DNA from: a phage
Direction: 5' to 3' (one strand)
Length of the DNA: 64,000 nt
Assembly (NCBI GenBank): GCA_025812035.1
Contig: GCA_025812035.1_4719.1
The position numbers and the translations under genes were made by a program. This document shows, piece by piece, positions 1-40,503 of the stretch. Each line of letters starts with the position of its first letter. Position 1 is the stretch's first letter. The notes below the pieces were generated by a model. It was not told where the DNA came from. It did no database searches and saw nothing but the letters and a program-made list of their open reading frames with translations.

Positions 1-679
1 GATCAAGTTGACGGTGCCATGTTGCGAGTATTCCCGTGTTCGTTACGATGTTTTCTGCTGTTTGCTGTAAATCAGCAATACTGCTTACCGCACCCCCTTT
101 CGGATGAAGATATCGCCAGTTGTAAGGAAAGTTCTCCCAGAATGCGTTATCTTCATTAACGTCGTATTCGGTAATGCTTTTCAGCTTAGCCGCTTTCTTT
201 AATAACGGCTTCACCTGACGAACGAATCGACGGTAACAGCGATTACAGATATCGATCGCGTAGCGGTATAGCTCATTCATGTAAAGCCATAACGCTCGGG
301 TTGCTTCTTTTGCGGTCTGGTCAAAACTTTCCATGTTCAGACTCATTCCGTTGGAAGTCTCCTCTTCCATACCCTCGATGATTTGGTTTGGATCCATTCC
401 CATCCCAGCCGCTGCGGTTGATGCGATATGCTTGATGGTGTTGATATCGCGTTCTTCAACCTCAGTCATGTTTGGGACAATATCCAGCCTGAGTTTATTT
501 AGTGTTTGAAGATGTTGTTCACCTTCTTTCATCACCGTGTTTGTTTCGTCGATTGAGTGAAACTGATTCTCAATATTACCGGCGTCGAGAATATTGCCAG
601 CGATACCGAACGATTCTACAGGTTCATCATCAATCCCTTGAAACAACGATGACATGGGTTGTTGCATCACGTTTTCCAT
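1..679 (-). CDS. Acidic-N-terminus virion/internal-protein family paralog, 5' part only (gene runs past window start)
   Basis: Minus-strand frame open from ATG near 677-679 (GGAG 7 nt upstream) to the window edge; N-terminus MENVMQQPMSSLFQGIDDEP and segment DINTIKHIASTAAAGMGMDPNQII resemble the three downstream paralogs. Absent from ORF track because its stop lies outside the window. Confidence 0.5.
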   Translation of the reverse strand, partial: MENVMQQPMSSLFQGIDDEPVESFGIAGNILDAGNIENQFHSIDETNTVMKEGEQHLQTLNKLRLDIVPNMTEVEERDINTIKHIASTAAAGMGMDPNQIIEGMEEETSNGMSLNMESFDQTAKEATRALWLYMNELYRYAIDICNRCYRRFVRQVKPLLKKAAKLKSITEYDVNEDNAFWENFPYNWRYLHPKGGAVSSIADLQQTAENIVTNTGILATWHRQLD

Positions 680-818
680 TTGGGACTCCTACGTAGGGAA
701 ATCTTGGCGGGTGATCATGTCCGCCATTTACCTTCTGAATCATTAATTCAGAATGCGGAATATGAAGCAAGGCTTCATACCCAAGTCAAAAGATAACCGG
801 ATGTTAACAGCATAATCA

Positions 819-848
819 CCTCCTCCAACCCGTAAGGGAAGGAGGAGG
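819..848 (-). terminator. GNRA-loop hairpin, family copy 1 (CCTCCTCC-AACCC-GTAA-GGGAA-GGAGGAGG)
   Basis: Perfect 8-9 bp G/C stem with A.A internal mismatch and GTAA loop, just 3' of the minus-strand gene ending at 859; no strong U-tract. Confidence 0.6.
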
Positions 849-858
849 GTTATGGTGG

Positions 859-2148
859 TTATGCTTTTTCGGTCACAGCGTTGAAGTATTTCTCTGCAGC
901 AAATACAGCATCCGCATATTGACGTACGGAGGCACGAAGGATCTTGGTTGACAGTACGGTACTTAAACGCGCCATTTCAGAAACCGCACCCACATAAGGA
1001 CGGATGGTTTCACGATCGGCTTCAGGCAGCTTGTCAAGCATGTCGCCCCACTTCGTTTTGATTTTCATACCGTTGAGTTTAGCGGTACGCTCCACAGAAC
1101 CAGCTAAAGCTTCAACCATGTGGAAATAAGAGGGGTCGATCGTACGGAACACGTTAAGATAGGAAGTTAACGCACCTTTCAGTTCGTTATCATCTTTGAA
1201 AATGTTTGCGTTCTCTATCTCACCGGCCACCGTCATCTCGGCTTCAACACGAATATTTTTCACCAACGCATAGGCTTTAATCGCGTCACGTTCGTTTTCA
1301 ACAGCATCGAGACCTTGAATAACGAATTCCTTCCCACCGCTCTCTGGAAAAACAACTTTATTCAGCGCGGATTTGATCGCCAGCAGGTATTTGTCTAAGA
1401 TAGATGGAAGCAGTGTGATGTCGGTGAGGTCTGCGACCTTTTTATTGATATCAGCTACTTGCTTAAACAATGAATCTACACCGCTTGCGCTTCCAGCGAG
1501 TTGTTCGATATGCTTGCTTGCGAACATGGCATTCGCTGACTTCGCATTAGGGAACATATTGACCATATTTTCAGTGGGCTTATCCAGTTGTTTGATATGG
1601 CGTTCACCTTTATTCACGGCGGTTGCGATGCCGACAATTTTGTTGTATGCGACGACCAGGTTCTTGAACAGTACCTGGAGCAGTTTGAACAGCTGCTCAG
1701 CGATATTTGCAATGATTACCCAAACCGCATATAACGCTTGTGCTGCGCGTTCTTTAAAGCCTTCCAATACAATGGCTTGCCCTTCCACTAACTTATCATT
1801 AGCCTGGAACATGTCTTCATCGGACATCCCCAGGTTTGCTGCTGACGTCGAAGCAATCTGACGGATAAGTGCGACGTCGCTAGGACGCGCTTCCGAGATC
1901 GTTGGTGCGATCATGTACGCTGTATCTTCCAGCGTTGCTGAGGTACGCACTGCGATTTCAGCCAGTTCGCTGGATTCATCGATTGTTTCGTCGGTACGTT
2001 GAATCACCAACTCAACTTCGTCCTCTTCGATTTCTGCGTTAGGGTCGTTCTGCTCCGCCGGAATCGCTGCGAGGAGATCTTCAGCACTCAGTAGAGAGAG
2101 TTCGAATGCGTTTTTATTGATGTTATCAAAAAGAGAAATACGAGCCAT
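859..2148 (-). CDS. Paralog family protein, 429 aa (putative internal head/ejection protein; function unknown)
   Basis: Long ORF, ATG with AAGGA SD; acidic N-terminal region; shared module PSDVALIRQIASTSAANLG ... IVLEGF followed by Trp-containing amphipathic helix. Confidence 0.6.
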   Translation of the reverse strand: MARISLFDNINKNAFELSLLSAEDLLAAIPAEQNDPNAEIEEDEVELVIQRTDETIDESSELAEIAVRTSATLEDTAYMIAPTISEARPSDVALIRQIASTSAANLGMSDEDMFQANDKLVEGQAIVLEGFKERAAQALYAVWVIIANIAEQLFKLLQVLFKNLVVAYNKIVGIATAVNKGERHIKQLDKPTENMVNMFPNAKSANAMFASKHIEQLAGSASGVDSLFKQVADINKKVADLTDITLLPSILDKYLLAIKSALNKVVFPESGGKEFVIQGLDAVENERDAIKAYALVKNIRVEAEMTVAGEIENANIFKDDNELKGALTSYLNVFRTIDPSYFHMVEALAGSVERTAKLNGMKIKTKWGDMLDKLPEADRETIRPYVGAVSEMARLSTVLSTKILRASVRQYADAVFAAEKYFNAVTEKA

Positions 2149-2157
2149 GTTAGTTCC

Positions 2158-3474
2158 TTAACCTTTGGTATAAGCGTTAACGAGAGTGTTGATGAATGAA
2201 GTCAATGCACGAAGATATTGATAAGCGAATTGGTTTTCAAGGCGGTTCTCTTTACCACAAAGTAGAATCGCGCGTTTAACGAGCTTAGGATAGATCTCGA
2301 CGTACGGTTGATAGCTTGTATCAAAATTCTGCTCGTTGAAGCGTTTCATGGTGATTTCCTGGATACGCTCCATGGTGCGAATTTTATTGCGAGAGAACAT
2401 CTCAGAGAAAGCACGTCCACGTTTTGTTACCATCAGCAAATCTTTCGCGAACGTAAGTTGTCGAACACTACGTAATTCGTCAGGTGTTGGCAGGACGTAT
2501 GTTTCTGGATCGCTATCCCATTCAACATCTTCAACGACGATATCCAAGTCAAGGTAGTGTTTAACCGCATCGATGATATTGTCTTTTGACGCATCGAATT
2601 CTTTCAGGAAGACCGCCCCGTTGATGTAACGGATGCGTTTCCCGGAAACCGTTGGAGTGATAACGTCAGCACCTTCCACGGAACCGCGATTTTCCAGTGT
2701 CGATTTGACAGCGTTTAAGAAAGACAGATAATCAACGGGAAGTTTTTCAACCTTATCTAAATGGAAGTCGATGATGTTTAATCCTAACCCATCAATAACC
2801 GAATAGCCGTCCGATTTAAGGAACATCTGATTGAAGGTTTCGATGTTGCTTTTCAGCGCGTCTACACCCCCAACTTTGTTACGGTTAGGGAAAAGCGTCC
2901 GCCACCCCGCTTTAAACGCAACCTCTTTATTTTCCTTGTATTTGCCTTTGGGCATCTGTTCGAGGGCCGCAACGGCTTTCTGAAAATTGCGTGTTTCGTC
3001 GTAAACAAGATGGGTAAGCTTCTCGAAGGCCGCTGCCAGGGTCAGGGCAATATCAACTATGATATCCCAGATCTTTTTCATGGCTTTTACAACGGTGTCC
3101 TTAAACCCTTCAACAACCAAAGCTTCTCCAACTTCAACACGATCGGTTGGAGCTAACAGTGTTTCAGAGGGTAGACCCAAGGCAATCGATGCGGATTCTT
3201 GAACGTTACGAACCAATGCAACGTCGCTGTAATTGGCCGATTCGATCGTCGGGGCAACATCAAAACTGATTTCCCGTAACGCCTCAACAGCAGGGAAAGC
3301 ACGATCAAGCGCATCCTCATGTTCGTCGATTGTCACCAAACGTAATTCAACGCCGTCCGCGTCGATGACTTCAGCTGTCGGTTCCACAGCAAGTGCTTCG
3401 GCAACGACGGGATCTTTTTCAAAAGCTTCAAGGCTAATATCGCCTTGTGTTTTAAATAGTGGTATACGTACCAT
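2158..3474 (-). CDS. Paralog family protein, ~438 aa (putative internal head/ejection protein)
   Basis: ORF track 2158..3498; start moved to Met-9 (MVRIPLFKTQ) which follows GGAGA and lies downstream of hairpin ~3523-3554. Module YSDVALVRNVQESASIALG ... LVVEGF. Confidence 0.6.
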   Translation of the reverse strand: MVRIPLFKTQGDISLEAFEKDPVVAEALAVEPTAEVIDADGVELRLVTIDEHEDALDRAFPAVEALREISFDVAPTIESANYSDVALVRNVQESASIALGLPSETLLAPTDRVEVGEALVVEGFKDTVVKAMKKIWDIIVDIALTLAAAFEKLTHLVYDETRNFQKAVAALEQMPKGKYKENKEVAFKAGWRTLFPNRNKVGGVDALKSNIETFNQMFLKSDGYSVIDGLGLNIIDFHLDKVEKLPVDYLSFLNAVKSTLENRGSVEGADVITPTVSGKRIRYINGAVFLKEFDASKDNIIDAVKHYLDLDIVVEDVEWDSDPETYVLPTPDELRSVRQLTFAKDLLMVTKRGRAFSEMFSRNKIRTMERIQEITMKRFNEQNFDTSYQPYVEIYPKLVKRAILLCGKENRLENQFAYQYLRALTSFINTLVNAYTKG

Positions 3475-3522
3475 GTGTTGTCTCCAGTAACAATTCAAAA
3501 GATAAACCAGAACGGCATAAAC

Positions 3523-3554
3523 CCCTCTCCCAACCCGTAAGGGAAGGGAGAGGG
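3523..3554 (-). terminator. GNRA-loop hairpin, family copy 2 (CCCTCTCCC-AACCC-GTAA-GGGAA-GGGAGAGGG)
   Basis: Same architecture with compensatory changes in the outer stem; 3' of the gene ending at 3577. Confidence 0.6.
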
Positions 3555-3576
3555 AATATATCAGTTTATTAACCGA

Positions 3577-4905
3577 TTATTGCTGTGCTGCGTCAGCCGG
3601 TTTCTCAGCCGCCTGGCCGCCGTACTCTTTCAGCATTTTAGCAGCGCCATCCAGTACAGCATTACCTGCCTGAACACCGTACTTCATCAGGCCGGTCTGC
3701 GGATTCACGTAGCAGGAACGTGCGTCTTTCAGAGCAGACAGTACAGCTTGAACACGCTGTTTTTCCTGAGCGGAAACTTCGCCTTTCTTAGACAGATCAG
3801 CTTCCATATCGTCGCCGAATTTAACAGCGTCTTTGAAGCCCTGGGATTTCTTACCGATGTTGCCTTTCAGCGCCAGCAGTTTGTCAGCCAGTACTTCAAC
3901 ACTGCTAACTGCGGCAGCCAGCTGATTCAGAGACAGTACAGTTGCTTCAACTTCTTTCGCTTCACCGGAACGTTCCCAGGTTACTTTACCGTCGTTGGTT
4001 TTGAAACCCCAACCCGCCGGGCCAGCAACGTCAGCAATCGCCGGTGCGTTCAGTTTATCTGCGTACTCGGTGTGGGACTTAGCAACAACGGTGTTGACGA
4101 ATTTATCAGCACGGTCGTCAGCAGCCTTCATTGCTTTCTCGAAGGTGTCAGCGATTTTAGTTGCACCGGTAACCAGATCGTCACCGCCGATATAACCTGA
4201 AACGCCGCTACCCAGTTTAACTTTGGCATTTTTAGCAGCGCCTTTACGTTTGGCGATCATTTCTTTCAGTTTAGCGGCACGTGCTTTCAGTTTGGTTGCG
4301 CCGTCGAAGATACGATCCATGAACTTCACGAAGGTTTCCCAGGAAGTTTTCAGGAAGTTCTTGATGGTTGCCCACAGTTTCTGCCACCATTTTTGTTCTT
4401 CCAGGAAGATCATGTTGGTTGCATCGTAACGGGAAGCGGAGCCACCGAAGCTTTCGAAGGACGGCATGGTTTCCGGCAGTTTGAAACCGATAGTACCACA
4501 CAGGCGTTTCAGGTTACGCATGTGTTCCTGAGCGGTTTGTGCAGACATACCACCGTCTTTCAGGTAGCTTTCGGTTGCAACAACGGTTTCCGTCAGTTCG
4601 TCCATGGCTTCGTCCATGGCTTCTGCGGTTTCGTCGTCTTTTGCAATTTCGATAACAACAGCATCAACCTGCTCGATATCGCCACGAACTTCGATAGCCA
4701 GTTCGGTTTCAGCTGCGGTATCTTCAGCGATTTCAGCGCGTTCGGTCAGTTCAGCTACAACGGTTTCATCATCTGCTGCTGCTGCGGCATCAGCTGCCGG
4801 TTCTGCTTCAACGGTTGCCGCTGCATCCGGATCGATCTCAGCAGCCAGTTGAACCAGCTGTGCGTTAGATGGATTTGCGACAAGACGATCAAAAATAGAA
4901 GGCAT
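3577..4905 (-). CDS. Paralog family protein, 442 aa, Ala/Asp/Glu-rich N-terminus (putative internal/scaffold-like protein)
   Basis: Long ORF with AAAGGA SD; strongly acidic Ala-rich N-terminal ~100 aa; central region similar to the neighbouring paralogs. Confidence 0.6.
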   Translation of the reverse strand: MPSIFDRLVANPSNAQLVQLAAEIDPDAAATVEAEPAADAAAAADDETVVAELTERAEIAEDTAAETELAIEVRGDIEQVDAVVIEIAKDDETAEAMDEAMDELTETVVATESYLKDGGMSAQTAQEHMRNLKRLCGTIGFKLPETMPSFESFGGSASRYDATNMIFLEEQKWWQKLWATIKNFLKTSWETFVKFMDRIFDGATKLKARAAKLKEMIAKRKGAAKNAKVKLGSGVSGYIGGDDLVTGATKIADTFEKAMKAADDRADKFVNTVVAKSHTEYADKLNAPAIADVAGPAGWGFKTNDGKVTWERSGEAKEVEATVLSLNQLAAAVSSVEVLADKLLALKGNIGKKSQGFKDAVKFGDDMEADLSKKGEVSAQEKQRVQAVLSALKDARSCYVNPQTGLMKYGVQAGNAVLDGAAKMLKEYGGQAAEKPADAAQQ

Positions 4906-4969
4906 AATTTGTTTCCTTTACAATAAATTGCACATTAGCTAATGCGGCTTAAGTGAACCGTTAGCTCAC

Positions 4970-5500
4970 TTAAAAGCCCTTAAAACCCGGTGCCATAGGT
5001 TGCCCAAACACCGCATTCAAAGTACATATGATGTCCTGGATGCCATTGTCCCAATGGAGCCAAGTACGCACCATCTCTTCGTCTGACAACGTGATATAAC
5101 TCATAAGTTTACCGCTGCTTTCCAGACGTTGGTGGGAACTTAATGATTGACGATCTGACCAGTTATCAATCAATTGTCCAGCAATCTGTACGTTCGTGTC
5201 TCGTCTACCCGTATGAATAAACCGTAGCGTATCACGGATAAACTCCAGACTGGTGAAGTTCAGATTTGGGTTATGGCTGTTCATTTCCACCCAGTCGGTA
5301 ATGGGGTACATCAAACGATAAAGGGTGGAAAGAACCTGACGTTCATATTTCCAGTCGTCGAGAGGAGTACCGTCAACCAGACGCTGATACAGACTAACAA
5401 CGTCACGATCGAAGTTCTCTTGGCGTTTTACACCGTTAACAGGAAAACCAAAGAACCCGGTACCGTATAACGTTAAAGGGACGTCACGAAGTGCACTCAT
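4970..5500 (-). CDS. Hypothetical protein, 176 aa
   Basis: ORF with ATGA stop/start overlap to the upstream gene (5497-5500), suggesting translational coupling. Confidence 0.55.
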   Translation of the reverse strand: MSALRDVPLTLYGTGFFGFPVNGVKRQENFDRDVVSLYQRLVDGTPLDDWKYERQVLSTLYRLMYPITDWVEMNSHNPNLNFTSLEFIRDTLRFIHTGRRDTNVQIAGQLIDNWSDRQSLSSHQRLESSGKLMSYITLSDEEMVRTWLHWDNGIQDIICTLNAVFGQPMAPGFKGF

Positions 5501-6399
5501 ACAGCCGCCTCTTCTTTTCGTTTGATATCATAACGAAGTTTCTTCAGTCGGTCTTCGTGATATTCGATCTGCTGTTGGATTTTCGGATCGTTACCTGCAT
5601 TCTGTTGCTTTTGCTTCAGCGACAAAATCCAATACTCCAACGCCTGGGCTTCTTCTTTGGCTGCCTGTAACGATGCTTCTTCACGCTCGCTGCGCCAGAT
5701 ACGGAAACGGTAAACAAGCGTGTCGGTTACATCACCATTAGCCCATGAACCCATACGCATCGGGTCGGTGTTACCTGCATTATACAGACCGTTACCAACG
5801 CCGTCTTCATCAGAAACCACAACATCCGGGATTTTATCCAACCCAGCCAGGATCTGTTGTTTCTGCCCACACAACACTTCGGTGGCAACGGCGAAACCGT
5901 ACATATTGGCGGTCAGGTAAGCAATCTCATTTTTGGTGAAGAATTCACCAAGTGCTTTATCACCACCTGGCATGCTTTCACAGATGACTGTTGCACGAAG
6001 CAACGTACGGGCATAGCTAACGTAGAAGCCCAGGGACTCAACAAGACGTACCAGAGCGGCTTCTTTGAAACTTAGACCGTCAGCAGCGACATCGATTTCC
6101 AGGTTTTTATTAACACGTTTAACGATTTCTGGAATCAGGTCAACCGCATTACGTAGTGCTAAGTGAACATTTTCGACCCAGTTTCCAGAACGAACGCGGG
6201 TTAGGCGTTGATGTAGATCCTTATCAGCAAGTTTCCATAACGCGCTTTCTCCCTTCTGGAGAAGCGAAGCGGATGTCTCGTAGTAAGGAATCGCGGTGTT
6301 GTTGATTTCGTCGCGGATTGATTCAAGTGCGTCAGCAACACCGGTGCGTTTAAAAAGCGGTTTCAGACCGCGAATGAATTCTTTAAAATCAATTGCCAT
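5497..6399 (-). CDS. Hypothetical protein, 300 aa
   Basis: Long ORF in the same operon-like run; Lys/Glu-rich coiled-coil-like C-terminus. Confidence 0.6.
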   Translation of the reverse strand: MAIDFKEFIRGLKPLFKRTGVADALESIRDEINNTAIPYYETSASLLQKGESALWKLADKDLHQRLTRVRSGNWVENVHLALRNAVDLIPEIVKRVNKNLEIDVAADGLSFKEAALVRLVESLGFYVSYARTLLRATVICESMPGGDKALGEFFTKNEIAYLTANMYGFAVATEVLCGQKQQILAGLDKIPDVVVSDEDGVGNGLYNAGNTDPMRMGSWANGDVTDTLVYRFRIWRSEREEASLQAAKEEAQALEYWILSLKQKQQNAGNDPKIQQQIEYHEDRLKKLRYDIKRKEEAAV

Positions 6400-6438
6400 G
6401 AGTGAGCACCTATGCTATTTCGAAACAGGTTACGTGTA

Positions 6439-7545
6439 TTAACGAATCTGTGGGACGTTTCCGGTACGGAGCGCCTGGAGGATCGTCAGAAGATCGGAAC
6501 CCGAGGTTGACGAACTGTTTGATTTTTCCAGTTGTTTGAAGCTTACGGTGGTCCCTTGATCCAGACTGTGGAAATAGAAGGTCACCATCTCCTCAGCTTC
6601 GTCGATGATGATCAGTTGCATTGCAAGGGCTTCAGCCATGACTTTCTGGCGTGTATTGTAATCAGATAAACGACGTCCGATCTTACGCTCGATGGCTTCC
6701 TGGTTAGCCTTAGAGATGATATAGGTGGAGGCGATTGCTCCAGAAGAAGGGATCTTTGTGCTCGCTGCCGCTTTTGCAGCATTGATGCGCGCAGCATTCA
6801 CCGCTTTACGGATACCCTCTTTATCCATGCGTGAGATTCGTTTATGTTCACGAACCAAATCGCTAAGCAGGATCATATCACTCCAGAAAGATAGCTCACC
6901 GGCCATCATGCGATGCCAGCGTGCTCGCCAGGTGTTCTGTGGGCCACCGATTGCTAAAATCGATGCAAGCACTTCCGCTGGTGAACTTGCGATACGCATG
7001 CTGATGTTCAACGGCATTTTCATTGTTGCCTGACCGTCGGTCAGCGTCACCGTTAAGAACTTGCCGGTGACCGCGTTTGCATCTTTGTTCAGCAGTTCGA
7101 TCGCAGCGTCGCTGGCTCCAACATCGATGCTATTTTTTTGTTTCCCCTGCAGGTTGAATCCTTTGTCGTCAAGGAAAACAAGGCTTTTGCTATCCGCACT
7201 TTCCAGTGCTAATTTAACAGCCTTATCCATCAGGTTAGCGTTACGATTTGGGTTAACACGACCCAGCGTTTTATCTACACTGATGTTACCCACCTGCATG
7301 ATGGTGTTCAACGCCAGTAAATAGAACCCGGTATACATGTTTTCAGCGGTGCGCATGCAGTTGCCTAACGCATTGCGTGCGTCGCTATAATACAACTCAC
7401 GTTCAAAGATCAGCGGTGCGATAACGCGTGAAGGTTGTGAGAGTTCAACCAGCGAACCTGGTTGGATAAGTTTATTGACTTCGTAGACTTTAGCGATACC
7501 GGACGCAACAACGTTAACAGCGTCGGCAATTTCTGATGCTACCAT
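6439..7545 (-). CDS. Hypothetical protein, 368 aa (possible virion protein)
   Basis: Long ORF, ATG preceded by AAGGA; first gene of the minus-strand run; no recognisable motif. Confidence 0.6.
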   Translation of the reverse strand: MVASEIADAVNVVASGIAKVYEVNKLIQPGSLVELSQPSRVIAPLIFERELYYSDARNALGNCMRTAENMYTGFYLLALNTIMQVGNISVDKTLGRVNPNRNANLMDKAVKLALESADSKSLVFLDDKGFNLQGKQKNSIDVGASDAAIELLNKDANAVTGKFLTVTLTDGQATMKMPLNISMRIASSPAEVLASILAIGGPQNTWRARWHRMMAGELSFWSDMILLSDLVREHKRISRMDKEGIRKAVNAARINAAKAAASTKIPSSGAIASTYIISKANQEAIERKIGRRLSDYNTRQKVMAEALAMQLIIIDEAEEMVTFYFHSLDQGTTVSFKQLEKSNSSSTSGSDLLTILQALRTGNVPQIR

Positions 7546-7579
7546 ATTGAAATCCTTATTTACAAATAAAGGAAAGAAA

Positions 7580-8785
7580 ATGTCTAATTACTACGACCAA
7601 GCTATTCAAACCATTCAGGAGAATAATGCGTCGTTAACACCCGAAGCTGTGGAGGCAGCGGGTAACGCGGCGTTATTCACCGATTCGGATTGGGCAATAG
7701 CGCGGAAGAATATTCGTACCAGTGTCGGTCAAGGGACATACGAGGACAGTATCGCCAGACGGTATCGGAATGTGTCACCTATTCCGGGTAACAGCCCGAT
7801 TCCGATTAACCGCGATCATGCCGGTATTACCTTCTTCACACGACCTAATTTACATCTTACCGACGCGAACTTAAAACGAGATCGACGTTTGTGGTCGTTA
7901 CGCACGGATAACCCTAACAGCATTCAGGCTGTTGTCCGTGACTACTTGGACCCTGTGGGTGCCAGAAAGCGAAACCATCGAGGACGTGCCATCGTCGATG
8001 AGCGCAATCCATTCATAAGTATACTGACGGATAACCTGACGGATATCAGTGGTTTCAACGACATGGAAATGCAGGTCTATCAGGGTAAACCAGGATTACG
8101 CCAAGAAACCGTTGTGATGGCCGACGGTTCGGTGGATATGTTCCAGCCATATAACCTGAACGCGACGTTCAAGAACATCATGGGTAACCCCATCATGTTC
8201 CTTCATTATATTTGGTTAATTTACATCGCAGGTGTGCATAACGGTGAACTGACACCAAGCCCTCAGGCCATCGTTGATAATGAAATGGATTACTGGACAA
8301 GATGCTATCGCATCATCCTGGATCCGACCGGGATGTATGTTCGTTATATCTTCGCACCGACCGCGATGTTTCCTGTTGGGCTACCGATTGGTAATATGGC
8401 TAACTACAGCGTTGACAAACCCTTCACGCAAGATAACGAACGTATCACTATTCCATATCAAGCGGTTGGCAACAACGCGTTCGATGAGATTCTGAAGGAT
8501 GAATTCAATCGACTTGTCCTGATGTTCTATTACGGTGAGAACGATACCCGTACGTTCCTTGAAGATGAGGAGCTGGTACCTATCTCACCCTACGAGCGTC
8601 GAATCATGTCTTATCGTGTTGATATGTATCCGTTCATTCATCCGTTAACCTCAGAGCTTCTCTGGTTCGTACCCGCTGATGATTACAACGAATTCTATCT
8701 GGACCTTGAACCGTCAGCGTTACCACCGGATACGTTCAGTCGCGATCTTGTCCGTACCACCATTCCGCAAAATTACGAGGGATAA
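7580..8785 (+). CDS. Hypothetical protein, ~401 aa
   Basis: ORF track 7547..8785 begins at TTG; ATG at 7580 (MSNYYDQ) follows AAAGGAAAG. Divergent from the 6439..7545 gene with only ~35 nt between starts. Confidence 0.6.
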   Translation: MSNYYDQAIQTIQENNASLTPEAVEAAGNAALFTDSDWAIARKNIRTSVGQGTYEDSIARRYRNVSPIPGNSPIPINRDHAGITFFTRPNLHLTDANLKRDRRLWSLRTDNPNSIQAVVRDYLDPVGARKRNHRGRAIVDERNPFISILTDNLTDISGFNDMEMQVYQGKPGLRQETVVMADGSVDMFQPYNLNATFKNIMGNPIMFLHYIWLIYIAGVHNGELTPSPQAIVDNEMDYWTRCYRIILDPTGMYVRYIFAPTAMFPVGLPIGNMANYSVDKPFTQDNERITIPYQAVGNNAFDEILKDEFNRLVLMFYYGENDTRTFLEDEELVPISPYERRIMSYRVDMYPFIHPLTSELLWFVPADDYNEFYLDLEPSALPPDTFSRDLVRTTIPQNYEG

Positions 8786-8788
8786 TAA

Positions 8789-11782: not shown

Positions 11783-11803
11783 AACAAAATAGCAAGTACA
11801 TAA

Positions 11804-11835
11804 CCCTCCTCCAACCCGTAAGGGAAGGAGGAGGG
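11804..11835. terminator. GNRA-loop hairpin, family copy 3, between convergent genes
   Basis: CCCTCCTCC-AACCC-GTAA-GGGAA-GGAGGAGGG between the plus gene ending 11782 and the minus gene ending 11845. Confidence 0.65.
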
Positions 11836-11844
11836 AATATGTTG

Positions 11845-14800
11845 TTATCTTACGTTAGTACTATTCTGCTGTTCGCTGAACCAACCATAAACCTTGAGAT
11901 CGGTACCGTATTTCAGTGCGATATACGCATTCAGTGCTGCACAGAACAAAGACGCGAATGCCCATACCAGCGAAGGATCGACATCTTCCGTTACCGCCAC
12001 CAGGGTAGCCTCTGGTTCCCATGACGGAGAACTGTCTGTAAACGTCGTGAACCATGCCCGACGTTGTTCTTCAGTGGTAAAGTCGCTATGTGGCTCCAAC
12101 GCTTCTTTTGCCAAACGTCGATATTCGGTCATATGAATCGCGAGAGCCGCTGAGCTATCATATTTGCATTCATAGTTCGGATCAACAGCACAACAGAGTT
12201 CTGCGGAATCCAACAAAGCAAGCGCTTGTTTGATGCTGTCGGTGGTGCCTGCACTATAAAGCTCGATAGACTGCGAAAGCTTTTCACAGAACGCATTTAA
12301 CGCGGCAGGATCGGATACCTGAAGGTCAAGACCTAATGTCCACGGATAGTTACTGAACACACCCGTAAACTGCGGCATAACACCCAACAGATGTTGTCCG
12401 ATTACAGCGCGGTTATAAGTAGCCCGATTATAGACTTGAAACGCGGCCTCCAATGCTTGGTTATAATGACGACGAAGTTCGTCACGCGTGTTGCGGAATC
12501 TGTTCGCCGCGAGACTCGTAGCTGCGACGCTACAAACATCGTAACCAGTGGACGAGAGCACAACGTCGTTAAGATCGAACGCTTCCTGTTTCAACGATCC
12601 ATTAACAGCTACCGCTTCGCTGTTCGCTTTATCGACAACCGTACTCAACGCGTTGATATAACGTTTAGCGCGGACTTCCAACCATTGTGCAATACCGAGA
12701 ATATCTACCGCGGCTTTAGCAAGATCGCGTGCGTTCACGATTTCGTTCTTCAAGGCACCCAACCCTTTATTCTCAGGCGAAGAGGCTTGTTGACGAATCA
12801 TGCTGTTTAACATGGTAAGCAGATTATCCAACTCATGTCCGCTGACCTTGTTACGCGCATCGGTAATCGGCCCTTGCAGGAATTTACGGCAACCATCGTT
12901 GTATCGAATCAGTTTATCCACATCGATCGACTCGTTAGCGGATTCCTTGAACTGATTCTTCAATTCTTCACGGTAATCATGAATTTCACTTGCAAGATTG
13001 TCGACAGTGATACCATCATGTTCGAGAAGAACTTTATTGAAGTTACCTTTCTCGAATGCAAGAGCAAGACCTTCGCGAATCTTAGCGAGTTTATCCTGAT
13101 CGAGTTCACGACCGTTTGATAACTCTTTCACTTCCGAGCTGATTAATGCTGCAACGTTACCCAGATTGTCGGTAACCCCTTTGAATGTCCCCGACCAAAT
13201 CGTTCCCGCTTCAGCATATTTCGCAATGGTCTGAATACCGACGGTATGCAATGACGCTAAACGTTTCTTCGTGCCTTCGGTAAGCAGTGCGTCTTTAGCT
13301 CGCGTAAGCTGGCTGTTATTAGCTTCCGCTTGCTGAATCGCTGCTTTCGCATTTCCATTACGCCAGCTCTTAACCAACCAATCAACCAGACGTTTTAGGA
13401 TGTTGACGGTATATTCCATCGTCCGCCGTAACGTCTCCCACGCGCTTTCAGCGGTATAAATGCCGTACCCTTCCATCGTCAACGCTTTCAAGCTTGTTTG
13501 ACGTGCCAGCCATTCTACCGTTGCAGAGCAAACGTTTACTAATGCTTCCAGGTAGTTGTAATAGACGTCTGTTGCCGACGTTTCGTTGAACTTTGAATGC
13601 AGATAGAACTGATCGTAAAGTTCGTCGTCATCACCGAAGGCATCATAGTTCCACAGTTCTGTATCACAACCTGTGCCGCAGAAGACGTCAGCTGTCGTAA
13701 ACTCTTTAAGCGCTTTAGCGGCGTCATTTGTCAGGAATTTACCTGTTTCAACTACATCGTCGACATTAAGTTTGGGGAGTTCGTCGGTGACCGGCTCTTC
13801 CAACATCAGCATATTGAAGAATGTGCTATACTTGTATCCGAGCCATTTTGGATAGCTGCTTTCAGGGATCGTAGACAGCGGCTTGATTTTCTTGGCTTCA
13901 GCCAACGTGTCTTTTGCGACCTGATATTGGTTTTCCCCAGCCTTGACGCGACGTAATGCTTTTTCTTCCAACTGCTTGAGTTTGGTATGTCGTGCTTGTG
14001 CTGGAGCTTCAACAAGTTTTTGTACGGACCGCATTGCTGATATCGCTTCTTTTAATACGATCATCGGCATACGAACTTTACCGTCGTCGAAACTAAGAGC
14101 GCGAGCGACACGTTTACTTACGACAGGCTTATCATGGATATTTCGTTCCACCCACGATTTGTTTGCGTAAGTTTGAGCGATCTGCTGTTGGATATTTTCA
14201 AGGTATTTCCAGCCGTTGGAAGCTTTGTTATCCAGAAGCGGATTCGGTCCCTTCTTATCGAAAAGTTTCAGAATCGGACCAAAGAAACCTTCCTGTACGA
14301 GTTCGATACGCGTGTATCCGTCAGCCGCTTCGATTTCTTCTTGGGTTTTGTCCCAGAGCTGTTCACTACGGACAGCAGTAGCTGTTTCAGATACCGACAT
14401 AACAAGCTCGGCAACAACTTCAGCGCAGGTCAGTACGGTACGCACGCATTGCAGTAGCATACGCTGGTAAACGATACGTGCGTTTTGTAGACGTGCGATA
14501 ACCGCTAAATAACCGATATTGTCAAGACGTTCGTCGGCTTGAGCAGAGTCAACACGTTCTATCAGTTGTTTCACCAACGCGGCTGTTTCCGGATAATCGT
14601 TCACGACGTCACGCATAATTCGTGATGCGAAAACCGCGGTACCTAAAACGTTAAGAAGTGTTTTACCGTCCCATTCTTTTGGTGTCGCTACCGATTCGGT
14701 AGGGATGAGATTTCCCGCTTGGTCGAAGTACGGCATAAGGACATTGATATCCGTAGACGGTACTGCGGTGACTGCGTTGTACTCTTCATCCGCACCATCG

Positions 14801-15450
14801 TCGCCGGATGGTTGTATAGCGAGTGCCTGTTCAAGGATTTTGCGGTCAACAGCATAAAGCGCTGATAGGGCCTGTGTTACCGCAACCAGATCAACAACCG
14901 GTGACCAGAGCTGTGCGAGTTTATCCTTGTATTTCTGTACAGCAATAACGAGGTCTTCTTTTACGTCAGGATGATTGATTAAACCACCCAACGCTTCATG
15001 GACTGCAGAAAAACGTTCAGAATGCGCTTGAGTTAATGCGACAAAATCGTCAACGTACGATGCATTTTCTTCAAGGCGTGCAAGTTCCTGCTCCAGGAGA
15101 TCTTTTACTTGCGTGGCGGATGCGTTTCTCAACTGTTCCCCGATAATCGCGATGGCTTTATCGACAACACGACAAGCTTCATTGAACCCGGTCGTTGATG
15201 GTAACTCGGTCCATAATGCCAGCGGCTTACCTTCCATTGCGTCAGGAAGGGAGTACGACAGCATTGTTAGTTGCTGACGCGATACCTGTTTATCACGATG
15301 TAGCGTTTCTTTCAACGCCAGAAGCTCATCAAGACCCACACTGCTGGGGATCGTGGGATGTGATACAGCGTTGATGTTTTCTGCTAATGACTCAAGAACC
15401 AATAAACCATTTTCAGCGGTAGAGAAACCTGCTTTAAGGTATTTGTTCAT
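11845..15450 (-). CDS. Hypothetical giant protein, 1201 aa (possible virion/ejection protein)
   Basis: Long ORF with GGAG SD; helical Ala/Leu/Glu/Lys-rich; contains IELVQEGF resembling the paralog-module motif. Confidence 0.65.
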   Translation of the reverse strand: MNKYLKAGFSTAENGLLVLESLAENINAVSHPTIPSSVGLDELLALKETLHRDKQVSRQQLTMLSYSLPDAMEGKPLALWTELPSTTGFNEACRVVDKAIAIIGEQLRNASATQVKDLLEQELARLEENASYVDDFVALTQAHSERFSAVHEALGGLINHPDVKEDLVIAVQKYKDKLAQLWSPVVDLVAVTQALSALYAVDRKILEQALAIQPSGDDGADEEYNAVTAVPSTDINVLMPYFDQAGNLIPTESVATPKEWDGKTLLNVLGTAVFASRIMRDVVNDYPETAALVKQLIERVDSAQADERLDNIGYLAVIARLQNARIVYQRMLLQCVRTVLTCAEVVAELVMSVSETATAVRSEQLWDKTQEEIEAADGYTRIELVQEGFFGPILKLFDKKGPNPLLDNKASNGWKYLENIQQQIAQTYANKSWVERNIHDKPVVSKRVARALSFDDGKVRMPMIVLKEAISAMRSVQKLVEAPAQARHTKLKQLEEKALRRVKAGENQYQVAKDTLAEAKKIKPLSTIPESSYPKWLGYKYSTFFNMLMLEEPVTDELPKLNVDDVVETGKFLTNDAAKALKEFTTADVFCGTGCDTELWNYDAFGDDDELYDQFYLHSKFNETSATDVYYNYLEALVNVCSATVEWLARQTSLKALTMEGYGIYTAESAWETLRRTMEYTVNILKRLVDWLVKSWRNGNAKAAIQQAEANNSQLTRAKDALLTEGTKKRLASLHTVGIQTIAKYAEAGTIWSGTFKGVTDNLGNVAALISSEVKELSNGRELDQDKLAKIREGLALAFEKGNFNKVLLEHDGITVDNLASEIHDYREELKNQFKESANESIDVDKLIRYNDGCRKFLQGPITDARNKVSGHELDNLLTMLNSMIRQQASSPENKGLGALKNEIVNARDLAKAAVDILGIAQWLEVRAKRYINALSTVVDKANSEAVAVNGSLKQEAFDLNDVVLSSTGYDVCSVAATSLAANRFRNTRDELRRHYNQALEAAFQVYNRATYNRAVIGQHLLGVMPQFTGVFSNYPWTLGLDLQVSDPAALNAFCEKLSQSIELYSAGTTDSIKQALALLDSAELCCAVDPNYECKYDSSAALAIHMTEYRRLAKEALEPHSDFTTEEQRRAWFTTFTDSSPSWEPEATLVAVTEDVDPSLVWAFASLFCAALNAYIALKYGTDLKVYGWFSEQQNSTNVR

Positions 15451-15465
15451 AAAACACTCCGTTGA

Positions 15466-15496
15466 CCTAGGTGGAGGTTATTGGCCTCCACCTAGG
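15466..15496 (-). terminator. Intergenic hairpin with perfect 12-bp stem
   Basis: CCTAGGTGGAGG-TTATTGG-CCTCCACCTAGG between the 934-aa and 1201-aa genes. Confidence 0.55.
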
Positions 15497-15531
15497 GTTG
15501 AACAACACGTACGGTTATACGGTACGCACGA

Positions 15532-18336
15532 TTACGCTAATTTACCGAAACCGGCTTTCTGTAGTTTCTCGTTGATCAGTTTTGCTTCAGCGAAAACATA
15601 ATCACGATATGCGGTAACTAACCCATCCACCCGTGAACGCAAGGCTTCTTCGAAGCTATACCACGCAGCGATTTCACGAATCTGAGCGTTGATATAATCA
15701 ACGGTTGAGCGAAGCTCGGTTGCATTTTCTTGCGGGATGGCTTTCACCTGGCGAGCAACGTCATTTAAACGACGGAACTGTGTTTCGATTTCTTTAAACT
15801 TACTGTCAGCAAGTTTGCTGAATTCGTCACCGGAACGAGTAAATAACAGATAGCTGTTGCCATCAAGTGCGGTCGCTAACTGCTGAAGTACATTGGTGTC
15901 CGGATACACAGGAGTACCGCTTTGCAGTACTTTCTCACCGAATTCCGCGAAGTCCTTCGGCGGTAAGTGTGCAGACGTTGTCAATTCGTTGAAACGGAAA
16001 GTCAGCGAACTATCATACAACATCCGGTACGCTTCCATACCCTGTTTCATGGTACCAGCCAGGTTAGCCAGACGCGGAGCAATTTCACCCTCTTTAGCGC
16101 GCTTCTGGTCTTCTAACGCCCCTTCCAGTTCTTTACACTGGTCGTTCAGATACACGATACGATCGGGACGCAGACGACGCATCTCACGAAGAATAGTATC
16201 CAGCTTACCTTCCTGGAAATAACCTAGCGTTAAAGACGTACACGCTTGTTGAAGACGATCGAACACTGGTAAGGTTACCATCTCTTTACGGATACCATCA
16301 ACAATCGCAGAAACAGCCGAAAGTTTCTGTTCTGTGGTTAATGGAACGTCAGAGACCGACTTGCTGGGCGCACCAACAACGTTACGCATTGCGTCGGTAT
16401 CCTCGGTTTTATCAACCTCTTTACGAACATTCTCGTCGGGAACATAAACGTTCGCATTACGTTTTGCCTGTTTGATGGCATCGCTGGCCGCTTTTTCGGT
16501 GGCCGCTACGCTATCGGCACGTTTCTTCAAGAGTTCAATAATCCAAAGCAACAGACGACGAATCGCAGTGTAGGCTGTCGTGATGATGACGCCGATAACA
16601 GCCATCTTCATGATACCGAACGATTCCATGGTCGGCTCTAACGCCTGGTCAGGCATATACCGTTCACGCAGCTCCAGATAGATCTGCTCATCCGGTTTGC
16701 TGATCTCACCACGATGCGAAGTCCGATAGATGGCTTCGTCAATCTCAACAAGATCTTTACGTGCTTGACGGTCTGTTTCGGTCAAATAAGCGCAGCCGGA
16801 TACGTCGTCTTCAAAACTTTCGAACTTAAAGAAATCGACAACCATCTTGGCAAGCGCCTCTTTCTTAGCAGGATCGAGCGTCTTCGCATCTTCTTTTTGC
16901 TTATCCATTTTTTCCTTGAATTTCTCTTTGTAGTCATTCAAGGGTTTTACCGCTCTTGCCCTCAACGCGTTATAGATAGTTTTCCAACTTTCTTCGCGTT
17001 CTAAGATAAGGAAGTAGTTTTTGAGTTCGAAAGCACGGTAACGTGCAACGAGCTGTTCTACCTGAGCATGAGCGAGTTGTACATCCATCAACCAGCGGGA
17101 CAATGCTGAAACCAAACGACTATAAGCAAGCAGCGTTTGATATGTCAGCTTCATGTGTTTCTCGTAGAGTTCAATATCTCCGCCCCGGATATCAGCTGTC
17201 GGGTTCATCTCCTTAGTTGCTTTGAAGACTTGTTCAGCTTCATTCAACACTTGCTCGAACTTGACTTCATTGAACGCGTTGAATGGTTCGGCCAGTTCAT
17301 CCATCTGTTCGTGAAGCTCGCGAACCCAAGCTTCTTTGTGATTACGAATGACCGCATCAGCGTGGAGCACGGTTTGATGTTTCTGTACCCATTCTTCGAC
17401 GATATCTGCCGCTGCAACAACACCCATGTTGTCGGAAATCAACGGAATAACATTGGAGAGCATACCAGCACACGCTGGTGTTTTCCAATGATCGTTTAAC
17501 GCGTTACGGAACGCAATAATGTCCGTCATAGACGTAGTGATATCGAGGAACGTGTTACCGTTACGACTCATGCTTGCGATATTTGCAGCAAACGTCTTTT
17601 GCTGATCTACAACGAATGGAATCAATAGCATCAACCATTCAGCAACGCATTTTGCTTTGTCTTTCAGGTTTTTGTCGGCTATTTCTTTGAGATTGATTGC
17701 GCTACCATAACCCGCAAGTTCGTTATATACGTCGTTCAAGGTCATCTGCTTATCCAGCATTTCTCTGAAACGCGGATAATCTTCCCCTAACGCATCGATG
17801 ACATCTTGGATAACATCGTCAGTTGTGGCGATAAATTTCTTCGCGTCGACTTTAGATTTCCAGACGTGTCGTACCGCTTTCTTGATTCCTTCAAAGATAA
17901 ACGCCCAGATACGCTTGATGAGTTCCCAGACTTTCTTCGCACCATCGACAAACAGTTTAGAGACTTTGGCAACGAATCCTTCCTGCACCAACTCAACGCC
18001 GTTACGTGATGGAATTTCGGTGAAGAAAGCATCCGGCAGTTGTTTCGGGAACGCATCACCAAGACGCATACGCAATTCGGGTACATCGGCACGAGAAATA
18101 CCACGCGTCGTTAGCTGCTCGTGAAGACGAACGTTTTCTTCACCAGAGGCTACGAATTCGTTAACGTCAAATGAAACCAGTTCTTGATCTTCGGTGGTAA
18201 CGACGCTTGAACCATCACTGGTTTGGATGTCTTCGTCAGGGAATGCCATGAGCATACCGTGACGCATTTCAACCACCCCGTAATCGGTTGCTAAACCGAA
18301 TTCGTTGTGATCGGGGGTAATAACTGGGATACTCAT
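15532..18336 (-). CDS. Hypothetical giant protein, 934 aa with paralog module and a hydrophobic segment
   Basis: AAGGAGAG SD; N-terminal region ISRADVPELRMRLGDAF ... GVELVQEGFVAKVSKLF...KKVWELIKRIWAFIF matches the module of the ~430-aa paralogs; hydrophobic stretch MAVIGVIITTAYTAIRRLLLWII. Confidence 0.65.
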   Translation of the reverse strand: MSIPVITPDHNEFGLATDYGVVEMRHGMLMAFPDEDIQTSDGSSVVTTEDQELVSFDVNEFVASGEENVRLHEQLTTRGISRADVPELRMRLGDAFPKQLPDAFFTEIPSRNGVELVQEGFVAKVSKLFVDGAKKVWELIKRIWAFIFEGIKKAVRHVWKSKVDAKKFIATTDDVIQDVIDALGEDYPRFREMLDKQMTLNDVYNELAGYGSAINLKEIADKNLKDKAKCVAEWLMLLIPFVVDQQKTFAANIASMSRNGNTFLDITTSMTDIIAFRNALNDHWKTPACAGMLSNVIPLISDNMGVVAAADIVEEWVQKHQTVLHADAVIRNHKEAWVRELHEQMDELAEPFNAFNEVKFEQVLNEAEQVFKATKEMNPTADIRGGDIELYEKHMKLTYQTLLAYSRLVSALSRWLMDVQLAHAQVEQLVARYRAFELKNYFLILEREESWKTIYNALRARAVKPLNDYKEKFKEKMDKQKEDAKTLDPAKKEALAKMVVDFFKFESFEDDVSGCAYLTETDRQARKDLVEIDEAIYRTSHRGEISKPDEQIYLELRERYMPDQALEPTMESFGIMKMAVIGVIITTAYTAIRRLLLWIIELLKKRADSVAATEKAASDAIKQAKRNANVYVPDENVRKEVDKTEDTDAMRNVVGAPSKSVSDVPLTTEQKLSAVSAIVDGIRKEMVTLPVFDRLQQACTSLTLGYFQEGKLDTILREMRRLRPDRIVYLNDQCKELEGALEDQKRAKEGEIAPRLANLAGTMKQGMEAYRMLYDSSLTFRFNELTTSAHLPPKDFAEFGEKVLQSGTPVYPDTNVLQQLATALDGNSYLLFTRSGDEFSKLADSKFKEIETQFRRLNDVARQVKAIPQENATELRSTVDYINAQIREIAAWYSFEEALRSRVDGLVTAYRDYVFAEAKLINEKLQKAGFGKLA

Positions 18337-18773
18337 GCATTCTCTCCTTGCAGTGCGTTAGCGAAAGCCGTTGCGAGTTGCGCAACCAGCTTAGGATCAA
18401 CACCTTCGATAACGTCAGGCAGCCCTGCGGTTTCTTGGTCACGAACAGCGGAGGCTAATAACAGCATGGTTTCAGGTGCGGTTGGCTCATGCACCATGCG
18501 GTAACGCAGGCACCAGAAGTAGCGGGCAACGTCTAACGCATCAGTCAGCCCAATAACCAGTACCTTGTTCAGCTTATCCAACCCGTCACGGATTTTAGGG
18601 AGATGTTCACGAACGAAGATGCTATCCGCAGTCAGATCTTCTTTTTCAGCGAATACTGGCATGCTGTAACCGGCGATGTAACCTGCAGCAATACTTAATG
18701 CGCGGGTCTGTTGTTCGGCTGGGAAGTCACGTACCAGGTCTTTCAGCTGAACGGCGAAATCAGAAATATTCAT
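18333..18773 (-). CDS. Hypothetical protein, 146 aa
   Basis: ORF with AAAGGA SD; ATGA overlap with the downstream 934-aa gene. Confidence 0.55.
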   Translation of the reverse strand: MNISDFAVQLKDLVRDFPAEQQTRALSIAAGYIAGYSMPVFAEKEDLTADSIFVREHLPKIRDGLDKLNKVLVIGLTDALDVARYFWCLRYRMVHEPTAPETMLLLASAVRDQETAGLPDVIEGVDPKLVAQLATAFANALQGENA

Positions 18774-40086: not shown

Positions 40087-40503
40087 TTACATAGCAGCAG
40101 GAAATTCCGGCCAATCGATATTTGGTGCAGCATCGGTATCGACAGCCGTCACGGCATCGATGTAATCCAAAACAGCATTAAGTTGAGTCGTTTCTTCCGG
40201 AGTCAGTTTTCGCCCAGCCCGTAATTTTAACTGAATAAGATCGATGGAAGCCAGCGCTGAATCAATCTTTGATTGTTTTATCTGTTCTGCCTCGGCGACG
40301 AGATCTTCGTGCTGCCGCTCGGGTTCAGGAGGCGCGATAAACTCGCCATCCGAGTATAACCAACCTATTCCAGGTGACACAGTTACCGCATCGCTAATAC
40401 TAACCAACTGTTGATTGTCGGATATATTGAGCTCTGCCTCACCATCGTAAACGATCGTGTTTACTACTACCCCATTTTCAATAACAGCGTATGATGTACT
40501 CAT
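40087..40503 (-). CDS. Tail fibre assembly chaperone (Tfa / P2 gpG-like), ~138 aa
   Basis: ORF track 40087..40527; start at MSTSYAVIENG overlapping the fibre stop (TAATG). C-terminal LTPEETTQLNAVLDYIDAVTAVD...NIDWPEFP is the Tfa signature. Confidence 0.8.
   Translation of the reverse strand: MSTSYAVIENGVVVNTIVYDGEAELNISDNQQLVSISDAVTVSPGIGWLYSDGEFIAPPEPERQHEDLVAEAEQIKQSKIDSALASIDLIQLKLRAGRKLTPEETTQLNAVLDYIDAVTAVDTDAAPNIDWPEFPAAM

Follow-up and report, generated by a model that had tools for sequence, protein, structure and literature searches.

Is a glutamate that recurs in a series of phage head proteins the point at which a head protease cuts them? The question is raised by 64,000 nucleotides of phage DNA (NCBI GenBank assembly GCA_025812035.1, contig GCA_025812035.1_4719.1), the whole of which is called the window here. 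On its minus strand, between positions 1 and 18336, there are a partial gene (1-679), three tandem paralogs (within 859-4905) and two large proteins of 1201 and 934 aa, all six of which are present as described in an earlier, sequence-only reading of this DNA. That reading took them to be packaged internal or ejection proteins, from which a T4-type prohead protease removes N-terminal targeting peptides. The conserved glutamate is indeed rather likely to be a cut point, although for a different enzyme, the S80 head protease of the phiKZ group, and to end a long acidic pro-region in packaged precursor proteins.

Internal head proteins of a Goslar-like phage

Positions 1-18400 of the window match Escherichia phage vB_EcoM_Goslar, with ~92% DNA identity over 86% of the length, and the window genes are fully syntenic with Goslar gp55-gp67 (Table 1). 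Goslar, a member of the Chimalliviridae, is a phiKZ-like jumbo phage of E. coli that forms a nucleus, and the region is the cluster of head-interior genes of a Goslar-like chimallivirus. Over the head block the DNA identity to Goslar is ~86-91% where the sequences can be aligned.

The four tandem genes, corresponding to Goslar gp55-gp58, are paralogs of the phiKZ internal head protein family, the 'inner body' or ejection proteins. In the case of 3577-4905, the Pfam family PF12699 (phiKZ_IP, phiKZ-like internal head proteins) is matched at 68.2 bits against a cutoff of 27, and PHROG calls an internal head protein. The match of 2158-3474, the start of which was picked by comparison with Goslar gp057, is 26.9 bits over residues 26-155, just below the cutoff. 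There is no direct PF12699 match for 859-2148 or 1-679 in the Pfam search, and these two are placed in the family because BLASTP ties them to the paralogs that score (859-2148 against 2158-3474, E = 2e-20; 859-2148 against 1-679, E = 2e-10). BLASTP finds no relation of 859-2148 to 3577-4905.

Goslar gp53-gp58, gp64 and gp65 are the direct orthologues, and their paralog array, PF12699 fold and copy numbers are already described in a 2026 preprint combining cryo-electron microscopy with mass spectrometry. According to that preprint, gp53-gp58 all have the PF12699 fold and are all found in purified virions by liquid chromatography-tandem mass spectrometry, with ~50 copies per virion of gp55, ~60 of gp56, ~50 of gp57 and ~2150 of gp58, the last being reported as injected into the host. 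The same source gives ~110 copies of gp64 per virion (supplementary table) and names gp65 as one of five proteins in the vertex-binding complex beneath each capsid vertex. The PF12699 links and the presence of all of the Goslar orthologues in virions bear out the claim that these are packaged proteins. Indeed, a paralog array of this kind, its packaging and its processing after Glu are already established for phiKZ, 201phi2-1 and SPN3US.

The glutamate junction

The conserved features of the junction are a hydrophobic residue or Gln at P2, Glu at P1, Gly or Ser at P1' and Phe or Tyr at P2'. Written as [MLVFIQ]-E-[GS]-[FY], the motif is present in 10 copies in the six proteins (3678 aa), against a mean of 0.65 in composition-preserving shuffles, none of 5000 of which reached 10, and so chance and low complexity are ruled out as its source. 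In the other 71 open reading frames (ORFs) of the window (16,831 aa) there is a single copy, in a doubtful ORF of 54 aa. All proteins of the window taken together hold five copies of the related pattern ME[GSAN][FYWIL], each of them in a head protein between 1 and 20117. P1 is Glu in all ten copies, with P3 being V in four, T in two, and P, N, S and K in one each. In this broader form the [LIV]-V-x-E-G-F segment of the sequence-only reading is upheld, with departures in 3577-4905 (SFE↓SF and FLE↓EQKWW, the arrow marking the candidate bond) and in 1-679 (NME↓SF).

The acidic N-terminal regions and the Trp-containing helix downstream of the motif, both part of the original description, are found in all six proteins. 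The net charge upstream of the motif is -12.6 to -17.9 per 100 aa in five of the proteins and -6.5 in the 1201-aa protein, as against about 0 to +3.7 downstream, the values for the partial gene 1-679 being -14.5 and +2.8. The placing of the motif at an N-terminal boundary is correct only in part, as the 934-aa protein has copies at 119, 506 and 571, and the IELVQEGF that had been noticed in the 1201-aa protein is at residue 387, not near the N-terminus, with a second copy at 660. The ELVQEGF heptapeptides of these two large proteins are identical, yet their codons differ at synonymous sites, and therefore the identity has been kept at the protein level and does not reflect a DNA repeat; recent DNA duplication or gene conversion is ruled out by the same differences.

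A longer segment of the form S-D-V-A-L-[IV]-R had also been taken as common to the partial gene, the three paralogs and the 934-aa protein. It is present literally in 859-2148 and 2158-3474 only, with the diverged RDINTIKHI in 1-679. When a 105-aa module profile built from the three clearly related paralogs was run on the 77 proteins of the window, it gave a weak hit to the 934-aa protein (residues 111-160, E = 0.009) and one of E = 0.42 to the 1201-aa protein, at its second motif copy, and 3577-4905 was not recovered. Going by these comparisons of sequence, the SDVAL...LG segment is clearly common to three paralogs only.

The evidence that the glutamate is a protease site comes from phages in which processing is known. 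In the phiKZ group, an S80 prohead protease processes the head proteins by cuts after Glu, following the rule S/A(/G)-x-E in phiKZ and A-x-E in SPN3US. The SPN3US proteins gp53 and gp54 ('paralog family A', PF12699 ejection proteins, with protease gp245) are of the same family and in the same position, downstream of gp48-gp52 homologues. Semi-tryptic peptides have mapped their sites, at AQE-125↓GWKETLKDLFER in gp53 (AQE-125↓GW) and at AQE-124↓SY and ARE-137↓SLWDDIK in gp54, as well as others in gp47 (ALE-111↓SW), gp45 (ASE-20↓SIGF) and the protease itself (AQE-203).

For an unanchored alignment, the N-terminal ~230 residues were taken from 17 family members, namely the four from the window, ten distant ones found by searching 1.84 billion cluster representatives, SPN3US gp53 and gp54, and phiKZ gp93. 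Window residues E129, E122 and E117 stand in one column with SPN3US gp53 E125, gp54 E137 and phiKZ gp93 E156, so that the Glu at which the acidic propeptide of SPN3US gp53 and gp54 (125-137 aa) is matured is aligned with the junction Glu of the window. This Glu is present in all 17 sequences, with Gly at P1' in 12, and it is the only invariant Glu across these diverse members. In a second column upstream, E↓[SN][FY], the mapped E124 of SPN3US gp54 is aligned with SFE↓SF of 3577-4905, the double site of gp54 being like the two candidate junctions of that protein. The multiple alignment that had been suggested as a check thus favours the hydrophobic-x-E followed by GF as a processing site, although the sites are not of the (L/I)-x-E form. 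Cleavage is mapped in SPN3US, whereas in the lineage of the window it may be inferred to occur at exactly these bonds.

There are differences between the two lineages. In SPN3US there are two paralogs with strictly A at P3 and with G-W, S-L or S-Y at P1'-P2', whereas the Goslar lineage has six paralogs (four of them in the window), in which P3 is V, N, S, T or K, P2 is often Met, and the bond is followed by G-F or S-F. In phiKZ the inner-body or internal head proteins are gp92-gp97, gp162 and gp163, with gp175 as the protease; the window resembles phiKZ in its syntenic tandem array beside the gp87-91 homologues and in the helix-rich fold. There the cut after Glu splits an N-terminal region from a helical domain, the equivalent junction in gp93 being ISLE156↓DLKE, but the phiKZ motif is S/A-x-E with D, E, N or S at P1', unlike the window.

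Outside the tandem paralogs, a BLASTP alignment of the gp67 orthologue with SPN3US gp45 (1e-27) has its exact start at KME16↓AINFQDG, opposite the mapped site ASE-20↓SIGFQD. Homology of the C-terminal module of the 934-aa protein to SPN3US gp47 is not detectable by BLASTP, and there is no convincing alignment of the SPN3US gp50 site with 6439-7545. Using phiKZ gp175 in phmmer and tblastn searches, no S80 protease gene was found within the 64-kb window. The prohead protease gene expected elsewhere in the genome is represented by Goslar gp212, outside the region covered by the window, which matches PF20034 (Peptidase_S80) at 263.7 bits, is 30% identical to phiKZ gp175 and was detected in Goslar virions. 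The junction near its C-terminus, SPTME197↓GFQ, is aligned with SPALE210↓NYE of phiKZ gp175, a protein known to lose its C-terminus. The same tetrapeptide is seen at the C-terminus of the protease and inside gp64 and gp65, with a Glu junction (KME16↓A) also at the N-terminus of gp67.

Fate of the pro-region and specificity of the proposed cut

The protein would be made as a precursor, in which an acidic pro-region or linker stands before an x-[M/L/V/Q/F]-E↓[G/S]-[F/Y] junction and an amphipathic, Trp-containing helix after the junction opens the helical body. The pro-region may bind the core or the inner face of the shell and so carry the precursor into the assembling prohead, where the S80 prohead protease (gp212 in Goslar) would cut after the conserved Glu. 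Within the capsid the helical domains would thereby be released, to be ejected later along with the DNA. The acidic pieces would then either be degraded and cleared or stay on the inner capsid wall, and this may vary by protein. A specific binding role for the pro-region is favoured because in the gp56 family (11 homologues of 859-2148, 67-95% identical overall) residues 61-129 are 80% invariant, compared with 36-40% for the body, and because N-terminal pieces of phiKZ gp93 (14-84) and gp162 (19-134) are seen attached to the inside of the capsid once cleavage has taken place. The inner body is thought to be formed by the helical domains of the phiKZ internal proteins.

Structure prediction for 859-2148, which had been proposed as a further check, is informative for the body only. 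In the AlphaFold2 model residues 161-429 are a confident helical bundle (predicted local distance difference test score, pLDDT, 70-92), so that the Trp-containing helix downstream of the junction is followed by a helical-bundle body, whereas residues 1-160 have pLDDT <50. Against the Protein Data Bank (PDB) there was no fold match, the best being E = 0.14, to generic helical bundles only.

Whether N-terminal regions are missing from particles was approached through the Goslar peptide table, of which the peptides alphabetically from A to 'ELK' were examined, so that peptides with A-E as the initial residue serve as a proxy. For the Goslar major capsid protein, peptides of the propeptide have areas of 1-2 thousand, against 84-570 thousand for the mature part. 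The gp58 peptides 55-72 and 115-128 have areas of 5-9 thousand, against a protein total of 10.8 million, which makes them as scarce as those of the major capsid protein propeptide. All three gp212 peptides examined are N-terminal to residue 197, and in gp53 the peptide just upstream of the third motif copy is scarce (area 1,040). The proxy peptides are suggestive for gp58, the major capsid protein and gp212, uninformative for gp56 and gp57 and ambiguous for gp64 and gp65; in gp65 the area of an N-terminal peptide is low (451), and both halves of the protein are represented. Over residues 1-934 the 934-aa ORF is matched by the 'gp65' of PDB entries 11fg and 11mk (1873 bits), and over 134-934 by a chain of 36za. 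In 36za, the Goslar composite model, the gp65 chain spans 134-934 and hence starts 14 residues after ELVQE119↓GF, and the major capsid protein chain spans 158-740, as the paper states.

Other observations weigh against cleavage at these junctions, or against loss of the N-terminal segment. A Goslar gp53 N-terminal peptide, 202-220, is abundant (area 79,000), an intact peptide spanning gp53 junction 827 was detected weakly (area 541), and a single peptide of the gp64 N-terminal module was seen in virions. The deposited gp65 chain runs across both internal copies of the motif. In the Goslar major capsid protein the first modelled residue, 158, follows L157 and not a Glu, the nearest Glu-ending tripeptides being GCE150 and SEE153. 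The residue that the junction has at P3 is V, N, T, K or S, not the S/A(/G) of phiKZ or the A of SPN3US, and only PSFE↓SF among the ten copies fits either S80 rule. Among the peptides from A to 'ELK' there is no semi-tryptic peptide or N-terminal sequence that would prove cleavage directly. Taken together, the peptide data are consistent with loss of the pro-region in gp58 and show that certain other N-terminal segments stay in the virion.

Two further features of the Goslar proteins concern these same stretches. In the major capsid protein gp41 (L002 15440-17662), the stretch at the boundary resembles the ELVQE↓GF joint and aligns with phiKZ GLE163↓NY, with Leu in place of the expected Glu, and the canonical GCE150 and SEE153 are just upstream of it. 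In gp65 an acidic stretch of 65 residues (-13.8 per 100 residues) separates the second copy of the motif from the third; excision of this 507-571 linker is unsupported, as the deposited chain spans it.

The retained segments raise the possibility that the acidic module is not discarded at all, and that it lines or cements the inner capsid after cleavage, as in phiKZ gp93 and gp162, the cut splitting a shell-bound piece from an ejectable one. The phiKZ capsid structure shows such retention for two PF12699 proteins, the greater conservation of the gp56-family pro-region than of its body is as expected for a segment that fits against capsid protein, and the abundant gp53 peptide is of the same tenor. 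However, no such fibre-like inner proteins are listed in the Goslar capsid model, and in the passages of the preprint that were read N-terminal pieces on the capsid wall are not reported and no ordered inner body was seen. The gp58 N-terminal peptides are depleted to about the same extent as the major capsid protein propeptide, and the SPN3US propeptides are mostly cleared. Retention of the module is a possibility to be held only tentatively.

The mismatch at P3 means either that the specificity of the protease differs in this lineage or that the true sites lie elsewhere. In the latter case the x-E-[GS]-[FY] motif and its Trp helix would be structural only, as a helix cap, the helix with which the PF12699 fold opens, or an element for docking, and processing, if any, would be at scattered S/A/G-x-E sites in the acidic region. 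Such tripeptides are plentiful there (SDE111 in 859-2148, for example), the canonical GCE150 and SEE153 in Goslar's major capsid protein come just before its first modelled residue, and AlphaFold2 draws one long helix (121-179) through the junction, at low confidence. This is nevertheless improbable. The junction Glu, alone invariant in the 17 members, coincides with the mapped SPN3US sites, and in its neighbourhood the paralogs have no canonical motif in common. The tetrapeptide recurs in otherwise unrelated contexts, including the protease C-terminus, the interior of gp64 and gp65, and the gp67 N-terminus, which is aligned with a mapped site. More distant relatives have the canonical Ala at P3 (ATE↓GI, AAE↓GF), with Val or Asn in the Goslar-proximal clade.

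The T4-type system of the sequence-only reading, with short N-terminal capsid-targeting sequences cut by a gp21-type protease at (L/I)-x-E, can be set aside as highly improbable: S80 proteases are distant relatives of T4 gp21 that also cut after Glu, and P3 is Val in four of the ten copies, but the enzyme is a Peptidase_S80, the pro-regions are 117-170 aa and not 10-20 aa, P3 is N, S, T or K in other copies and never L or I at the junction, no short leader ending in (L/I)-x-E was found, and there is no homology to T4 internal proteins in Pfam or PHROGs. The logic is shared with T4 IPI-III and Alt, which are packaged and ejected proteins with N-terminal leaders cut after Glu by a related protease; those leaders are short, with the (L/I)-x-E motif and without sequence homology, and the acidic region of the window is far longer.

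Modules of gp64 and the surrounding cluster

The 1201-aa protein is Goslar gp64 (930 aa) with an additional 273 aa inserted exactly between ELVQE↓GFF and TME↓GYG, sites which are nine residues apart in Goslar. The DNA similarity to Goslar stops at window position 13480 and resumes at 14280-14357, both points being on motif codons. The C-terminal module is 83-97% identical to that of Goslar, compared with 34-45% for most of the diverged N-terminal module, the first 100 aa of which are 70% identical. Among the best 120 of 306 gp64 homologues in public assemblies, a 928-aa class has a single hybrid joint (DLVQE↓GYGI), a 937-aa class has two joints nine residues apart, and a class of 1194-1205 aa has two joints ~270 residues apart. 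In Erwinia phage pEa_SNUABM_54 the insert has a homologue, the C-terminal module of the 805-aa protein QXO10977, which starts right after ASTE↓GFF. The alleles and the shared insert suggest that cassettes have been exchanged at the joints.

Two observations stand beside these. Window positions 14357-15152, in the N-terminal module of gp64, show no DNA similarity to Goslar that can be detected; at the protein level the identity is 34-45%, with flanking genes at 86-97%. The stretch is a hypervariable module within a head cluster that is conserved elsewhere. In QXO10977 itself (L011 2417-4834), an unrelated N-terminal domain is joined to the gp64 insert module, and the joints between its segments read SVSQE↓GLL, DLTE↓GFW, ISVE↓SYD and ASTE↓GFF.

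One possible extension, for which the evidence is mainly from gp64 and which is put forward with some hesitation, is that the Goslar-lineage junction, often along with an acidic linker, acts as a portable 'package-and-release' joint. The S80 protease would then read P2, P1' and P2' but not P3, gp53, gp64 and gp65 would be polyproteins cut apart in the capsid, and recombination at the joints could insert, delete or exchange cargo modules between phages. In the passages of the Goslar preprint that were searched and read no processing sites are mapped, no junction motif is mentioned and mentions of the protease are incidental. Within that coverage, the lineage consensus that departs from the S/A-x-E rule at P3, the recurrence of the junction at the protease C-terminus and inside giant head proteins, and the motif-bounded polymorphism of gp64 modules, all three of them readings of sequence, appear to be unreported.

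Table 1. Genes, gp64 modules and glutamate junctions of the head cluster. Arrows mark the candidate bonds; numbers after E are residue positions.
Feature	Position	Strand	Glu codon	Remarks
gp55 orthologue (partial)	1-679	-		N-terminal 226 aa, PF12699-type; gene runs past window start; Goslar gp055 annotation and sequence
gp56 orthologue	859-2148	-		429 aa, PF12699-type paralog
gp57 orthologue	2158-3474 (longer ORF to 3498)	-		438 aa from ATG at 3474
gp58 orthologue	3577-4905	-		442 aa, dominant PF12699 internal/ejection protein
gp59 orthologue	4970-5500	-		PhiKZ gp91-type vertex-binding protein; PF25618, 157.6 bits
gp60 orthologue	5497-6399	-		PHROG match; gp60/gp61 in phiKZ gp90/gp89 positions
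gp61 orthologue	6439-7545	-		PHROG match; gp60/gp61 in phiKZ gp90/gp89 positions
gp62 orthologue	7547-8785	+		Baseplate
gp63 orthologue	8789-11782	+		Baseplate
gp64 orthologue	11845-15450	-		1201 aa virion protein
gp65 orthologue	15532-18336	-		934 aa vertex-binding-complex protein, PhiKZ gp86 counterpart
gp66 orthologue	18333-18773	-		Vertex-binding protein; PDB 'gp66' match
gp67 / SPN3US gp45 orthologue	18807-20117	-		Head gene; BLASTP 1e-27 to SPN3US gp45
gp64 N-terminal module	14290-15450	-		Residues 1-387; alignment with Goslar gp064
gp64 inserted module	13471-14289	-		Residues 388-660; 273 aa, absent from Goslar gp064
gp64 conserved C-terminal module	11845-13470	-		Residues 661-1201; alignment with Goslar gp064
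Junction LNME117↓SF	in 1-679	-	329-331	Acidic pro-region 1-117
Junction IVLE129↓GFKE	in 859-2148	-	1762-1764	Pro-region 1-129
Junction LVVE↓GFKD	in 2158-3474	-	3109-3111	Charge switch
Candidate junction PSFE151↓SFGG	in 3577-4905	-	4453-4455	
Candidate junction IFLE169↓EQKWW	in 3577-4905	-	4399-4401	
Junction ELVQE387↓GFF	in 11845-15450	-	14290-14292	
Junction LTME660↓GYG	in 11845-15450	-	13471-13473	
Junction ELVQE119↓GFV	in 15532-18336	-	17980-17982	Acidic region 1-119
Motif FKFE506↓SF	in 15532-18336	-	16819-16821	
Motif PTME571↓SFGIM	in 15532-18336	-	16624-16626	
LKME16↓AINFQDG	in 18807-20117	-	20070-20072	

The gene order of the cluster is the same as in phiKZ (gp89-gp97) and SPN3US (gp45-gp54). 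Its neighbours are homologues of phiKZ gp87-gp91, for which the Goslar annotation notes similarity to ORF087/088/089, and the Goslar preprint gives gp60 and gp61 as packaged in the virion and injected. A GC-rich, conserved hairpin, CCTCCTCCAACCC-GTAA-GGGAAGGAGGAGG, is present in three copies (819-850, 3524-3555 and 11805-11836), each directly 3' of a stop codon, those of the gp56, gp58 and gp64 orthologues, with the third copy lying between convergent genes. These hairpins are probably shared intrinsic terminators that set the transcription units in the head cluster. The gp67 orthologue (18807-20117, minus strand) has an HExxH motif, LHEIGHAF, for which SPN3US has LHEVGHVY, and around residue 300 a stretch of hydrophobic residues; it is a virion protein with a possible metalloprotease-like site.

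Beyond the head genes, an unbroken DNA polymerase ORF of 583 aa is present at 20339-22090 on the plus strand. In Goslar the polymerase gene (L001 25468-28978) is interrupted after codon 499 by an insertion of ~1.76 kb with the NUMOD1/HNH endonuclease gp069, and residues 499-583 are encoded downstream of it with 99% identity. The difference resembles that made by a homing-endonuclease or intron element which is polymorphic for presence and absence. Two DUF7941 proteins are encoded on the minus strand (35392-38004 and 44712-46550), one with a TIM-barrel sheath-like domain and the other with DUF285 repeats; DUF7941 is a chimallivirus-specific family of filament and host-recognition proteins. Between them, at 40503-44021 on the minus strand, is a P1/P2-type tail-fibre protein with a glycine-rich C-terminus. 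Goslar-like genomes (contigs of 234-246 kb) are common in public sequencing assemblies of E. coli, Salmonella, Shigella and Enterobacter (protein matches P0001-P0167), which implies that Goslar-like phages often accompany sequenced isolates.

The general picture of phiKZ and SPN3US is unchanged by these findings. For Goslar, the motif makes exact predictions that can be tested in the proteome, through tryptic peptides that span the junctions, such as LVEGQAIVLEGFK, VEVGEALVVEGFK and NGVELVQEGFVAK, and through the gp64 post-junction peptide GYGIYTAESAWETLR. The Goslar structure paper gives as a key unsolved question the role of the thousands of PF12699 proteins that chimalliviruses package and inject. 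The cut sites define the mature species that enter the cell and the early infection vesicle, and they also define the packaging-signal segment and hence the part to which foreign cargo might be joined if it is to be delivered. In gp64 the motif-bounded modules are a hint at how phages of this family diversify their injected cargo.

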